DNA from: an uncultured Clostridium sp.
GTDB lineage: Bacteria; Bacillota; Clostridia; TANB77; CAG-508
DNA length: 64,000 bases
NCBI GenBank assembly: GCA_947073285.1
Contig: CAMTJT010000009.1
Span: forward strand, 355-64,354
Reading direction: 5' to 3'
The position numbers were made by a program, and so were the translations under genes. This document shows, piece after piece, positions 7,262 through 9,424 of this stretch (positions within the stretch are counted from its first letter, which is position 1; every line of letters starts with the position of its first letter). The notes under the pieces were generated by a model. That model had not been told where the DNA came from. It did no database searches and saw nothing but the letters and a program-made list of their open reading frames with translations.

Positions 7262-7744
7262 ATGGCAGGAGCAATTATGGAAAAAGTATGGGGATTATTT
7301 GGAATGGACCCAGCAGAAGACAGAGAAGAAGAAGAGATGGAAAACTATGATATAGATGAAGAAATAGAAGAGGAAGAAGAAGAACAAGAAGAAAGAAAAC
7401 TATGGGGAAGAAGAAATAGCAAAGTAGTTAACATGCCACAAATGCAACAAGTAAAAATGGTAATATCACAACCAACTAACTTTGAACAAGCTGCTAATAT
7501 TTGTGATTTACTAAAACAAAAAAAATCAGTTATTGTTAACTTAGAATATGTAAATAAAGATGTTGCAAGAAGAATTATAGATGTTGTTTCAGGTGCAGTA
7601 CATGCACTAGATGGGCATATGCAAAAAATATCTAATTCTATTATATTAATTGCACCATTTAATTATGATATTGAAAATGATATGATGGCAAGAGATGAAA
7701 TAAAAAATAAATTATCAGTTTCATGGTTAAGAAATGCTAACTAA
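7262..7744 (+). CDS. sepF: Cell division protein SepF
   Basis: Acidic N-terminal linker, then the conserved SepF core (VISQPTNFEQAANICDLLKQKKSVIVNLEYVNKDVARRIIDVVSGAVHALDG). Confidence 0.85.
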   Translation: MAGAIMEKVWGLFGMDPAEDREEEEMENYDIDEEIEEEEEEQEERKLWGRRNSKVVNMPQMQQVKMVISQPTNFEQAANICDLLKQKKSVIVNLEYVNKDVARRIIDVVSGAVHALDGHMQKISNSIILIAPFNYDIENDMMARDEIKNKLSVSWLRNAN

Positions 7745-7835
7745 ATCTAAGCTTTTTTACACTTGCATAGCAAGTGTATTAATGATATAATAAAGGCATA
7801 GAATAGAGAAAAGCAAAAAAATAGGAGGAAAAAGT

Positions 7836-8285
7836 ATGCTTACACCTTTAGATATTGAAAATAAAAAGTTTTCAAAACAAATGATGAATGGATATAGCGT
7901 AGAAGAAGTAGATGACTTTTTAGATGACCTAACCAGAGATTATGAAAAAGTATATAAAGAAGTAGCAGAAAACAAAAATAGATTAGAAGAGTTACAAGAA
8001 AGTATTTCAAAATATAAAAACATAGAAAATACTTTACAAAATACTTTAGTAATGGCACAAGCTTCAGCAGATGAAGTAAGAAATTTAGCAAAACAACAAG
8101 CAGAACAAATTGTTAGTGAAGCACAAGCAGATGCAAAACGAGCTGTTACAGAACTAGAGCAAGAACTTATTCTAAAGAAAAAAGAATTAGAAGATTTACA
8201 AAAACAATTTGATGTATATAAAGCAAAAATGGAATCACTTTTAATTTCACAATTAGAATTATTAAAAGAAGTTAATAAGGAATAA
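7836..8285 (+). CDS. divIVA: DivIVA-family cell division protein
   Basis: MLTPLDIENKKFSKQMMNGYSVEEVDDFLD N-terminal lipid-binding domain, followed by a coiled coil. Confidence 0.85.
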   Translation: MLTPLDIENKKFSKQMMNGYSVEEVDDFLDDLTRDYEKVYKEVAENKNRLEELQESISKYKNIENTLQNTLVMAQASADEVRNLAKQQAEQIVSEAQADAKRAVTELEQELILKKKELEDLQKQFDVYKAKMESLLISQLELLKEVNKE

Positions 8286-8314: not shown

Positions 8315-8343
8315 TTGCATTTTACAGAACTTTTTGATATAAT
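8315..8343 (+). promoter_or_regulatory. Candidate promoter TTGCAT-17-TATAAT with extended -10 (TGATATAAT)
   Basis: Read directly. Lies just after the divIVA terminator hairpin (8289-8310). Confidence 0.55.
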
Positions 8344-8350
8344 TTTGAAA

Positions 8351-8436
8351 GAAGGTTTTTATACGACCTTCCGATATTTCGGAAGGTTTAAATAGCCCTC
8401 CGAAATATACAAAAAATATTTAGGAGGAACAAGAAA
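8351..8436 (+). promoter_or_regulatory. Structured 5' leader, copy 1: 9-bp hairpin accttccga/tcggaaggt, then an anti-SD segment ccctccgaaatat able to pair with the RBS atatttaggagg
   Basis: Complementarities read directly. Near-identical copy at 8925-9008. Confidence 0.55.
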
Positions 8437-8694
8437 ATGTGGGTAAGATGCAAAGAGTGTAGAGGCAAAGGGAAAGTCATTTTGGCATATAGCGATATGA
8501 AGACAGACTGCTCAGCTTGTAAAGGAAAAGGTGGGTTTAGAGTTCCCAAAGGTAAGGAAATATGCCCTGATTGTGGAGGAAGCAGACGGGTGGAAGTTCC
8601 TATTTCTTGTATACTAAGTTCTTTGAGAGCAATGGAAGTTTGCAAAAGATGCAATGCCACAGGCTTTATTGACAAGAATCCCACAAGCAAATAA
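8437..8694 (+). CDS. Stand-alone DnaJ-type zinc-finger protein, 85 aa, four CxxCxGxG-like motifs
   Basis: CKECRGKG, CSACKGKG, CPDCGGS, CKRCNATG. Good RBS and a terminator. Contains the only normally read in-frame CGG that I found (8587-8589). Confidence 0.7.
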   Translation: MWVRCKECRGKGKVILAYSDMKTDCSACKGKGGFRVPKGKEICPDCGGSRRVEVPISCILSSLRAMEVCKRCNATGFIDKNPTSK

Positions 8695-8695
8695 A

Positions 8696-8737
8696 TAGTA
8701 AGACCGCTTATCATTTTTAGATAGGCGGTCTTACTAT
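8696..8737 (+). terminator. Terminator-like hairpin (tagtaagaccgc...gcggtcttacta)
   Basis: GC-containing inverted repeat directly after the stop codon. Confidence 0.6.
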
Positions 8738-8887
8738 TGGTTTGCTTGAGAAGAGCAATAGTATTGCAAATTAGTATGGTATAATTATATTAAAAGTAAA
8801 ATAAAAGTTAAATAAGGAGTTTGAAAAGGTAAAAAGTTAATAATAAAAAGCTGAGGCAATAGAATTAAAGAACATTGAGAATAAATA

Positions 8888-8916
8888 TTGTAATTCACAT
8901 AAAACGATGATATAAT
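8888..8916 (+). promoter_or_regulatory. Candidate promoter TTGTAA-17-TATAAT with the same extended -10 TGATATAAT as copy 1
   Basis: Read directly. Part of the duplicated promoter-leader module. Confidence 0.5.
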
Positions 8917-8924
8917 ACAAAAGA

Positions 8925-9008
8925 AGGCTTTTATAAGACCTTCCGATATTTCGGAAGGTTTAAGTAACCCTCCGAAATATACAAAAAAATATTTAGGAGG
9001 AAAAAACA
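8925..9008 (+). promoter_or_regulatory. Structured 5' leader, copy 2 (same hairpin, anti-SD and SD segments)
   Basis: gaccttccgatatttcggaaggtttaagtaaccctccgaaatatacaaaaaaatatttaggagg, almost identical to 8364-8427. Confidence 0.55.
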
Positions 9009-9260
9009 ATGTTGGTAAAGTGCAAAGAATGCAATGGCGAAGGGTTTGTTTTTTCAGAACAACTGAAAATTGCTTTTACCTGCTCTGCATGTAAGGGAAA
9101 AGGTGGATTCGATGTCCCTGAGGGGAAAGAAATATGTCCTGAATGCAAAGGAAGTCGTCATGTTGTAGTTAAAGTAGAAGGCTGTGGGATTGGCATTCAG
9201 CAAAACTGCAAGAACTGCTATGCCACAGGCTTTATTGACAAAGAAACCAACAACAATTAA
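9009..9260 (+). CDS. Stand-alone DnaJ-type zinc-finger protein, 83 aa (paralog of 8437..8694)
   Basis: CKECNGEG, CSACKGKG, CPECKGS, CKNCYATGFIDK. Confidence 0.7.
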   Translation: MLVKCKECNGEGFVFSEQLKIAFTCSACKGKGGFDVPEGKEICPECKGSRHVVVKVEGCGIGIQQNCKNCYATGFIDKETNNN

Positions 9261-9268
9261 ATAATCGC

Positions 9269-9300
9269 AAACCCGCCTATCTTGAATGATAGGCGGGTTT
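9269..9300 (+). terminator. Terminator-like hairpin aaacccgcctatc/gataggcgggttt
   Basis: 13-bp inverted repeat after the stop codon. Confidence 0.6.
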
Positions 9301-9424
9301 ATGTAAAAAAAGATAAAAAATTGTTTACATTTAGAATAACGTGATATATAATACTTATGAATATTACAGAAAAATAACATTATTACAAACACTTTAAAAA
9401 AATATTACAATTATGTTAAATGTA

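Follow-up and report, generated by a model that had tools for sequence, protein, structure and literature searches.

A duplicated leader with two predicted alternative folds around the Shine-Dalgarno sequence precedes zinc-finger mini-protein genes and unrelated genes on low-GC Clostridia-like contigs

What controls two adjacent genes for small zinc-finger proteins whose mRNA leaders resemble each other far more closely than their coding sequences do? The question arises from a 64,000-nt stretch of contig CAMTJT010000009.1 (assembly GCA_947073285.1, uncultured Clostridium sp.), an AT-rich sequence (28.9% G+C) that is called the window throughout. It carries two tandem monocistronic transcription units, at 8315-8738 and 8888-9301, each made up of a strong sigma-A promoter, an mRNA leader of ~90 nt, a small coding sequence (CDS) and a terminator-like hairpin. 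A first-pass annotation of this DNA had described a duplicated promoter-leader module in which four segments, the last containing the Shine-Dalgarno (SD) sequence, can pair in mutually exclusive ways, and had suggested a riboswitch, an RNA thermometer or a protein-titrated translational switch. Reading of the sequence recovered the four segments in both copies where the annotation had placed them, and RNAfold and suboptimal folds bore out the duplicated module, the SD sequestration and the mutually exclusive pairings. A fifth segment, which we call seg0 (AGAAGG), was absent from that annotation; it lies 7 nt past the -10 box, i.e. at the predicted +1, and is complementary to seg1. The features of the two units are as follows.

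8315-8343 (+): promoter of unit 1, with -35 TTGCAT at 8315-8320, a spacer of 17 and an extended -10 TGATATAAT (TGaTATAAT) at 8335-8343
8350-8355 (+): seg0 of leader 1, AGAAGG, from suboptimal and constrained folds; pairs with seg1 in the alternative fold
8366-8374 (+): seg1 of leader 1, ACCTTCCGA, the 5' arm of hairpin 1, anti-SD-like
8379-8387 (+): seg2 of leader 1, TCGGAAGGT, the 3' arm of hairpin 1, which can also pair with seg3
8396-8408 (+): seg3 of leader 1, CCCTCCGAAATAT, the anti-SD, with seg4 (OFF) or seg2 (ON) as partner
8416-8427 (+): seg4 of leader 1, ATATTTAGGAGG, with the SD GGAGG at 8423-8427 and the ATG at 8437, 9 nt away
8437-8694 (+): CDS 1 (leader 1 ends at 8436), an open reading frame (ORF) for an 85-aa zinc-ribbon mini-protein with four CxxC pairs
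8694-8738 (+): intrinsic-terminator-like hairpin of unit 1, 19 pairs, from a scan
8888-8916 (+): promoter of unit 2, with -35 TTGTAA at 8888-8893, a spacer of 17 and an extended -10 TGATATAAT at 8908-8916; 10/12 matches in the scan, TG present
8922-8927 (+): seg0 of leader 2, AGAAGG, from suboptimal and constrained folds
8938-8946 (+): seg1 of leader 2, from sequence and RNAfold
8951-8959 (+): seg2 of leader 2, from RNAfold
8968-8980 (+): seg3 of leader 2, the anti-SD, from RNAfold
8989-9000 (+): seg4 of leader 2, with the SD GGAGG at 8996-9000 and the ATG at 9009
9009-9260 (+): CDS 2 (leader 2 ends at 9008), an ORF for an 83-aa paralog, 52% identical to the CDS 1 protein
9268-9301 (strand.): terminator-like hairpin of unit 2, with A-tract, stem and U-tract; called by the scan on the minus strand only

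The unit 1 promoter was read by eye from the sequence, the promoter scan having listed that of unit 2 and not that of unit 1. Between the two copies, the leaders are 87% identical and the coding sequences 66% (45% when third codon positions alone are counted), as against 54% for the DNA preceding the promoter and 56% for the 3' flank, and the core from seg0 to the SD (AAAGAAGG..GGAGGAA) is ~94% identical, with four substitutions and one extra A in a hand count on the alignment. Since identity in the leader greatly exceeds that of the CDS and of third codon positions, the leader must be under much stronger constraint than neutral sites.

For both leaders, RNAfold predicts a minimum free energy (MFE) structure with two hairpins. 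In hairpin 1, seg1 and seg2 form 10-11 bp closed by a UAUU loop (the 1:2 pairing); in hairpin 2, seg3 pairs with seg4 (3:4) through CCUCC/GGAGG (5 bp), a 1x1 G.A mismatch and six A-U pairs, so that the SD is paired. The leader MFEs are -27.8 and -29.5 kcal/mol (z -4.36 and -5.56), none of 200 shuffles was as stable (0/200), and both hairpins were retained in full-length mRNA folds with an SD pairing probability of ~1.0. Folding the two leaders was a check that the first-pass annotation had itself proposed, and it returned the expected 1:2 hairpin and SD-burying 3:4 helix in each. The alternative 2:3 pairing has 10 bp, an A.C mismatch and a further 2-4 bp. A complete alternative fold, 0:1 + 2:3, leaves the SD and the A-rich ribosome-binding site (RBS) unpaired at a cost of only 3.7 and 5.1 kcal/mol relative to the MFE, and it contains about as many pairs as the MFE fold. 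We refer to 1:2 + 3:4, in which the SD would be buried, as OFF, and to 0:1 + 2:3, in which the SD and A-rich RBS would be single-stranded behind a hairpin at the extreme 5' end, as ON.

These complementarities are peculiar to the leaders. The 12-mer CCTCCGAAATAT, allowing at most one mismatch, has six sites in the 64 kb, all within the two leaders, where 0.11 would be expected and 0/100 shuffles reach six; the sites are seg3 and the reverse complements of seg2 and of seg4 in each leader. Seg2 together with loop 1 (GATATTTCGGAAGG) is a near copy of the RBS region, in effect a decoy. The sequence after hairpin 1 reads UUUAAAU or UUUAAGU in the window leaders, and the scan did not call this hairpin as a terminator; as the two leaders have no U-tract, control there would be translational only.

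The same architecture recurs in distant relatives of the zinc-finger genes and in front of genes of other kinds. Homolog loci (numbered with the prefix L) were fetched by protein similarity or identity and their upstream regions were then read; in all, thirteen zinc-finger lineages were sampled. The window architecture, which we call type A, was present in L005, L017-19 and L021, of which L005, L017 and L021 were found by protein similarity alone, and in L033/L047, which came later from a pattern scan, i.e. in four other lineages. The scan searched metagenome contigs for seg1-seg2-seg3 (CCTTYCRA N3-6 TTCGGARGG N3-14 CCTCC) and gave 59 hits. High-GC hits were chance matches or terminators; with the exception of a partial variant, L037, the low-GC hits (24-31%) show the full architecture including seg0, the SD and a start codon, all of which lie outside the pattern. 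These low-GC hits precede a zinc-finger gene (L033/L047), a family of genes for 208-221 aa proteins, or an 82-aa gene (L026/L082), on low-GC, Clostridia-like and mostly metagenomic contigs. Recurrence in distant homologs (L005, L017, L021) and before unrelated genes supports selection on the leader, one of the two explanations that the first-pass annotation had offered for the near identity of the copies.

The proteins of 208-221 aa match no Pfam or PHROG family at cut-off, with weak sub-threshold Pfam hits at E >= 0.005. When homologs of this family were fetched by protein identity, the leader was found in 6/6 loci, within a conserved order of holA, a sleB-like gene, the leader-bearing gene and dnaE. 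Here 3:4 consists of CCUCC/GGAGG alone over a loop of 17-37 nt, whereas in zinc-finger leaders it is extended to 10-12 bp; seg0 to seg3 are nearly invariant. Hairpin 1:2 is followed by a U-tract in this family and was called terminator-like (L034:4271-4297, L085:2410-2434), such that these leaders may combine transcription attenuation with SD masking. The 82-aa orphan gene is preceded by the leader at L082:8559-8888, on an IMG/VR contig predicted to be viral (L026 carries the same element), and sits past a tail-fibre-like gene and putative lysis genes in a moron-like position, these roles being read from the ORF list. L082 was the one real match among viral contigs, a looser pattern giving only GC-rich terminator-like palindromes.

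A covariance model, R1, was built on 12 leaders, following another suggestion of the first-pass annotation. Searched against the window and ~258 kb of related loci, it recovered the known copies and the partial L037 variant and nothing further, and blastn of the leader against phage and plasmid collections gave no match. These results indicate a low-copy regulatory leader and not a repeat element; a repeat or mobile cassette resembling a miniature inverted-repeat transposable element was ruled out on the same grounds. The window itself contains no genes of the other leader-bearing families and has no nucleotide similarity to their loci. The partial variant, at L037:1372-1439 (+), has a seg2:seg3 hairpin TTCGGAGGGCattaCCCTCCGAA followed by GGAAGGGAG and ATG, is without seg0 or a clear seg1, and reads as a terminator on the opposite strand.

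An alignment of the 12 leaders confines conservation to the five pairing segments, the loops and linkers being 3 to 37 nt long and variable in sequence, so that no aptamer-like pocket is visible. All 11 leaders that were folded (11/11) can adopt both folds, with ON-minus-OFF differences of 2.3-8.6 kcal/mol; in L044, ON is already the MFE structure. Nearly all related leaders have the seg0 motif RAAGG, at 8-20 nt before seg1. In alignment A6, the 0:1 pairing has 100% of cells paired and one covarying pair (A-U 5, G-C 5, G.U 2), 1:2 has 95.8% paired and one covarying pair (A-U 4, G-C 4, G.U 4), and 2:3 has 87.5% paired when counted column-wise, a figure lowered because the register is shifted by one nucleotide in L005, L017 and L033, for which reason 2:3 was judged by hand. 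Slid controls fall to 32-75% paired. A double change between L017 and L033, seen by eye, replaces U by C in loop 1 and A by G in seg3, which keeps 2:3 as C-G and 3:4 as G.U; it would be the best single piece of evidence for selection on 2:3. In most relatives, G.U pairing between the two arms of hairpin 1 (CCUUUCGA / UCGGAGGG) leaves the DNA palindrome imperfect and the sense RNA helix perfect, which favours an element acting at the RNA level over a DNA operator.

The predicted folding path suggests how the folds may be used. In every leader tested, the MFE structure flips with transcript length from 0:1 to 1:2, then to 0:1 + 2:3 and, once the SD has been made, to 1:2 + 3:4. Just before the SD is made, [0:1 + 2:3] is 3.3-5.9 kcal/mol better than [1:2], and ON-like structures are the MFE at lengths 55-76. 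Direct-path barriers are predicted at 12-17 kcal/mol before the SD emerges and 14-21 at full length (range 12-21), high enough to imply bistability, with either state long-lived once formed. On this basis the leader can be modelled as a chain of five alternating purine-rich (SD-like) and pyrimidine-rich (anti-SD-like) segments in which neighbours are complementary, with the consensus seg0 RAAGG, seg1 CCUUYCGA, seg2 UUCGGARGG, seg3 CCUCCGAA.. and seg4 as the real SD. Hairpin 1:2 would form first and persist, and seg3 would then capture the SD once it emerges; with OFF as both the kinetic and the thermodynamic product, the mRNA would be made translationally silent. We infer that a trans-acting factor, either a protein or a small RNA, acts on seg0/seg1 during transcription, stabilising 0:1 or occupying seg1. 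With seg1 kept off seg2, seg2 would capture the anti-SD seg3 and the SD would open, relaying a decision taken at the 5' end to an SD ~60 nt downstream; in the 208-221 aa family, transcription termination would be subject to that decision as well. A 5'-terminal hairpin such as that of the ON fold is expected to protect mRNA in Firmicutes. With one leader in front of genes for at least three unrelated protein families, it is unlikely that the zinc-finger product regulates its own synthesis. Our preferred reading is thus a default-OFF bistable translational switch opened by a trans-acting factor near the 5' end, to which we assign a probability of about 0.45. Among the three mechanisms originally proposed, a protein-titrated or trans-factor switch is the most viable, while the riboswitch and the thermometer found no support, as set out below.

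Several observations weigh against this switch, and the evidence for it, which is structural and comparative, is statistically thin. Covariation is weak and not significant, with 72-93/500 shuffles reaching the observed values: there is very little variation within the segments, and in the metagenome hits the search pattern itself dictated seg1 to seg3. As hairpin 1 is built of SD-like and anti-SD-like sequence, the core 2:3 complementarity is automatic, and the extension into loop 1 is the sole independent evidence for 2:3. All energies are nearest-neighbour predictions, and the barriers, being taken from pseudoknot-free direct paths, are upper bounds. No trigger, binding protein or small RNA was identified. 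Six of the 13 zinc-finger lineages have a leader that does not mask the SD, hence this regulation is not essential to the family. Lastly, seg0 is weak in L021 (GAAGU) and degraded in L089/L090 (AAAGG to AAATG, AAAUG in RNA), a change that may serve as a natural test case or else argue that seg0 is dispensable:

L089:~180-265 and L090:~120-205: seg0-mutated lineage of the 208-221 aa family, with weakened 0:1 pairing

Other explanations have to account for the same leaders. The plainest is a static structure, in which hairpin 1 guards against 5' exonuclease, hairpin 2 throttles translation to a constitutively low level, and 2:3 and 0:1 are by-products. OFF is indeed both the MFE structure and the fold expected to form during transcription, pairing of the SD does not fall below 98% at any modelled temperature (10 to 55 °C, both window leaders, partition function), no trigger was identified and the covariation is not significant. 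Yet seg0 is conserved at differing distances from the -10 box among gene families and covaries with seg1 (G-C vs A-U), the 3' extension of seg3 has a complement in loop 1, with the double substitution in L017, and seg0 to seg3 stay nearly invariant in the 208-221 aa family, where 3:4 is reduced to 5 bp. The conserved core is therefore more than an SD clamp, and we consider a static leader unlikely, though not far-fetched. The length-dependent flips in all leaders, and the advantage of [0:1 + 2:3] over [1:2] before the SD is made, would also suit kinetic self-limiting translation, whereby a nascent ON-like fold permits a few initiations and then turns OFF, capping output without a trigger, much as folding kinetics do for the MS2 maturation gene. 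This is improbable, since 1:2 forms first and, unless overestimated, a barrier of 12-17 kcal/mol is too slow for the ~1 s available before the SD. Heat might instead melt 3:4 and expose the SD of a chaperone-like product, as the first-pass annotation had surmised from a DnaJ-zinc-finger-like protein, and the SD hairpin does have an internal mismatch and an A-U-rich distal half. The models speak against such a thermometer: the SD is at most 2% unpaired from 10 to 55 °C in the window leaders and most relatives, and the ON-OFF gap is nearly independent of temperature (in the cold L023 alone moves towards 2:3, a pairing that in L044 dominates throughout the temperature range). Its SD pairs with CCUCC and shows no fourU or ROSE signature (U(U/C)GCU with a bulged G), the same leader stands before unrelated genes, and five segments exceed a thermometer's needs, making this idea very improbable.

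A small-molecule riboswitch of an undescribed class would explain a conserved leader before several non-homologous genes, with the alternative folds as its expression platform and no Rfam match. Its conserved nucleotides, however, all lie in complementary segments, with no conserved unpaired positions or junction, and the regulated genes, which match no Pfam family at cut-off, give no metabolic clue; a classical metabolite riboswitch is thus highly improbable. We judge equally poor the chances of attenuation of the ermC or cat type, in which seg0 would be the SD of a leader peptide and a ribosome stalled on seg1 would open 1:2, with 2:3 then freeing the SD. The required 1:2, 2:3 and 3:4 pairings with a regulated SD in the last segment are present, seg0 is SD-like, and AUG, GUG or UUG occurs 5-10 nt past seg0 in L017, L021, L022/L034 and L044, with a common frame of CCU-UYC over seg1 when read by eye. 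There is nevertheless no AUG, GUG or UUG between seg0 and seg1 in the window leaders (AUA only), L023, L033, L077 or L085/L087, L077 has the L022 leader with GUG changed to GAG, and frame and stop differ between the window copies through a difference of one A in an A-run. A conserved leader peptide was rejected, as start codons past seg0 exist in some lineages only and in neither window copy. Finally, TTCCGATATTTCGGAA is a DNA palindrome at ~+20 to +35 and might be a repressor-bound operator 3' of the promoter, or the leaders might merely reflect gene conversion, which the adjacency of the copies makes possible. The arms in relatives differ by transitions that give G.U in the sense RNA only (CCTTTCGA vs CCCTCCGA), and conversion cannot explain an architecture conserved across species and gene families, which leaves operator or conversion the least probable of the explanations considered.

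The first-pass annotation had not recognised a known riboswitch class in the leader, and Rfam gave none: a search of the window and 15 related loci against Rfam 15, at gathering and permissive thresholds, found no family that the leader matches at threshold. The sole recurrent weak match was RF02934 caiA, at 21.5 and 20.6 bits for the window leaders and 32.5 for L022 (gathering 55.5). In caiA, a GGGGGA arm is paired with a UCCCCC arm ~25 nt upstream of AAGGAGGAA and AUG, which aligns to hairpin 2:3 and the SD; caiA has no counterpart of seg0 or seg1 and differs in sequence outside the SD region, so that the resemblance is one of analogous arrangement and not of membership. A full-text literature search for the segment sequences found no bacterial paper.

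The pairing logic is closest to that of the ermC, cat and cmlA translational attenuators of Firmicutes, in which successive complementary leader segments hide the SD through 1:2 + 3:4 and free it through 2:3. The window leader shares this logic and an SD-like element upstream of segment 1. Those attenuators, however, depend on translation of a leader peptide and on a ribosome stalled by the drug on segment 1, and they control resistance genes; here neither a start codon nor an ORF is conserved, seg0 can pair with seg1 in addition, and the targets are not resistance genes. In activation of the rpoS type, an upstream inhibitory arm closes the SD and a small RNA opens it by pairing with that arm; an SD closed by an upstream arm and opened when another RNA segment takes the arm is common to both, but the arm that does the opening here, seg2, belongs to the same transcript and is in turn masked by seg1. 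Antitermination by the BglG/LicT family uses a weak 5' hairpin, the ribonucleic antiterminator (RAT), that overlaps the 5' arm of a stronger downstream terminator hairpin. Similarly, the weak 0:1 overlaps the 5' arm of 1:2, which is terminator-like in the 208-221 aa family; unlike these systems, the leader has neither a RAT consensus nor a neighbouring antiterminator gene, and the window leaders lack a U-tract. Type I toxin mRNAs provide a further parallel, as aapA3 uses metastable SD-sequestering hairpins (PMC6733600) and timP a structural switch whose activation is purely structural, without processing (PMC13000454). Like the present leader, these mRNAs are default-silent and have several anti-SD elements whose sequential or alternative folds set access to the SD; they differ in encoding small toxins with an antisense or small-RNA antitoxin, whereas the products here have 82-221 aa and belong to no recognisable toxin family. 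No antitoxin RNA turned up in consensus promoter and terminator scans, which were the only searches run for one and did not go into depth.

Each of the two zinc-finger proteins contains four CxxC pairs, which are invariant across the family. The first-pass annotation had read these as four CxxCxGxG-type motifs; only two per protein are canonical CxxCxGxG, the third being CxxCxGS and the fourth CxxCxxxG. Both proteins score 32.6 bits (E 1e-7) against Pfam DnaJ_CXXCXGXG (PF00684), just short of the gathering cut-off of 32.7. Anti-TRAP (PF15777) scored 18.6 and 26.9 bits, below its cut-off of 32, and is ~53 aa long compared to 83-85 aa. Profile matches in the PDB were the E. coli DnaJ cysteine-rich domain (1exk, E 3e-7), Ydj1 and Anti-TRAP (3lcz, E 4e-3). 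An AlphaFold model of the CDS 1 protein is all-beta (pLDDT 88.8), and its best Foldseek match was the zinc-finger region of DnaJA2 (probability 0.95, E 0.16, TM 0.44), followed by the lambda Q zinc ribbon and UvrA zinc modules, none of them significant. The proteins resemble the DnaJ cysteine-rich domain and Anti-TRAP in their four CxxC pairs and all-beta zinc-ribbon model and differ from DnaJ in having no J domain or C-terminal domains and only two of four CxxCxGxG motifs; 'free-standing DnaJ-type zinc-ribbon mini-protein' is a fair description. The family is rare: a profile search of 1.8 billion proteins gave 83 representatives at E < 1e-3, ~35 of them stand-alone proteins of 70-97 aa, and none of these representatives bears a name beyond 'hypothetical'. 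The profile was needed to find the family, as a word-indexed search with protein 1 returned itself alone, and for the locus search an 8-sequence alignment worked where one of 32 sequences was too divergent.

Complementary segments are not universal among the zinc-finger homologs; the first-pass annotation had named their absence from homologs as grounds for refuting its proposal, and this objection applies in part. Apart from the four other lineages that keep type A, six (L004, L007, L008-10, L011, L012 and L020) have a different leader, type B, in which the SD is unmasked, and two more (L006 and L013-16) have further leader types, so the leader is no fixed attribute of this gene family. Type B leaders carry GATGAATGGTTTTTATCTCCGTTTCATCAGTAGG at the predicted 5' end, a 5' hairpin GAUGAAUGG..CCGUUUCAUC and a 4-bp covarying mini-hairpin immediately 5' of AAGGAGG (GAGTAattTACTC, GAGCtattGCTC, GTGCaattGCAC, GGCAattGCC), and they have no Rfam match. 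They were located as follows.

L004:1976-2058: type B leader
L007:2918-3000: type B leader
L010:160-244: type B leader
L011:203-283: type B leader
L012:78-158: type B leader
L020:1423-1500: type B leader

Most zinc-finger homolog promoters, with any type of leader, contain an exact palindrome, ATTTTAYRTAAAAT, between -35 and -10, at a fixed place ~107-157 nt before the ATG. From its sequence it looks operator-like and somewhat CodY-box-like. No ATTTTAYRTAAAAT occurs within 2 mismatches in the window promoter spacers, 8321-8334 and 8894-8907. The promoter-spacer sites start at these positions.

L004:1951: ATTTTAYRTAAAAT site
L007:2894: ATTTTAYRTAAAAT site
L010:135: ATTTTAYRTAAAAT site
L012:50: ATTTTAYRTAAAAT site
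L013:777: ATTTTAYRTAAAAT site
L021:1386: ATTTTAYRTAAAAT site
L033:1692: ATTTTAYRTAAAAT site

The contig of L047, which carries a type A zinc-finger gene, also has an OLE RNA (RF01071, 137.6 bits) at L047:1-375 (-), cut by the locus end, placing this organism among the OLE-bearing anaerobic Firmicutes. In the 208-221 aa loci, a conserved hairpin (L034:5024-5094, AATGTCCAAAAAGAACCGTCCCTTTTGGACATT; L085:3206-3268, TTGTCCATTTGGGGACGG) comes after a strong promoter, just 3' of the leader-bearing gene and within the 5' region of dnaE, and may be another leader element. Within the window, the spacer between the two units (8764-8865) has weak promoter-like sites on both strands, and a minus-strand TTAACT-16-TATAAT at 8811-8784 points into the unit 1 terminator; an antisense or 3'-overlapping RNA may arise from this spacer. 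The two units are flanked by the following genes.

7262-8285: 5' neighbours, a sepF-like gene (from reading its translation) and divIVA (by Pfam)
3' neighbours: an rsmD-like gene and then an ftsK-like gene, both named from reading their translations

SD-sequestering leaders with alternative pairings are an already known kind of control. What appears to be new, judging from the sequences, is a conserved family not represented in Rfam, and the chain of five mutually exclusive segments with no visible sensor domain is unusually long. If the leader proved to be a static clamp only, it would be an ordinary structured 5' untranslated region. A broader scheme, rather improbable when all its parts are taken together, would make it a 'relay' riboregulator of a small post-transcriptional regulon in low-GC Clostridia, comprising the zinc-finger mini-proteins, the 208-221 aa orphan family beside dnaE and a prophage moron; a putative RNA-binding factor would act at seg0/seg1, Anti-TRAP-like zinc-finger proteins would be its antagonists in a feedback circuit resembling TRAP/anti-TRAP, and termination and SD access would be set together in some members. 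At least three orphan gene families, unrelated to one another, carry this leader in gut Clostridia that are little studied and for the most part uncultured. Should the proposed switch be true, it would provide a handle on the trans-acting regulator or signal behind the leader and on the function of a rare family of free-standing DnaJ-type zinc-finger proteins, as well as a natural RNA relay, compact and bistable, for possible reuse in the synthetic biology of Firmicutes.

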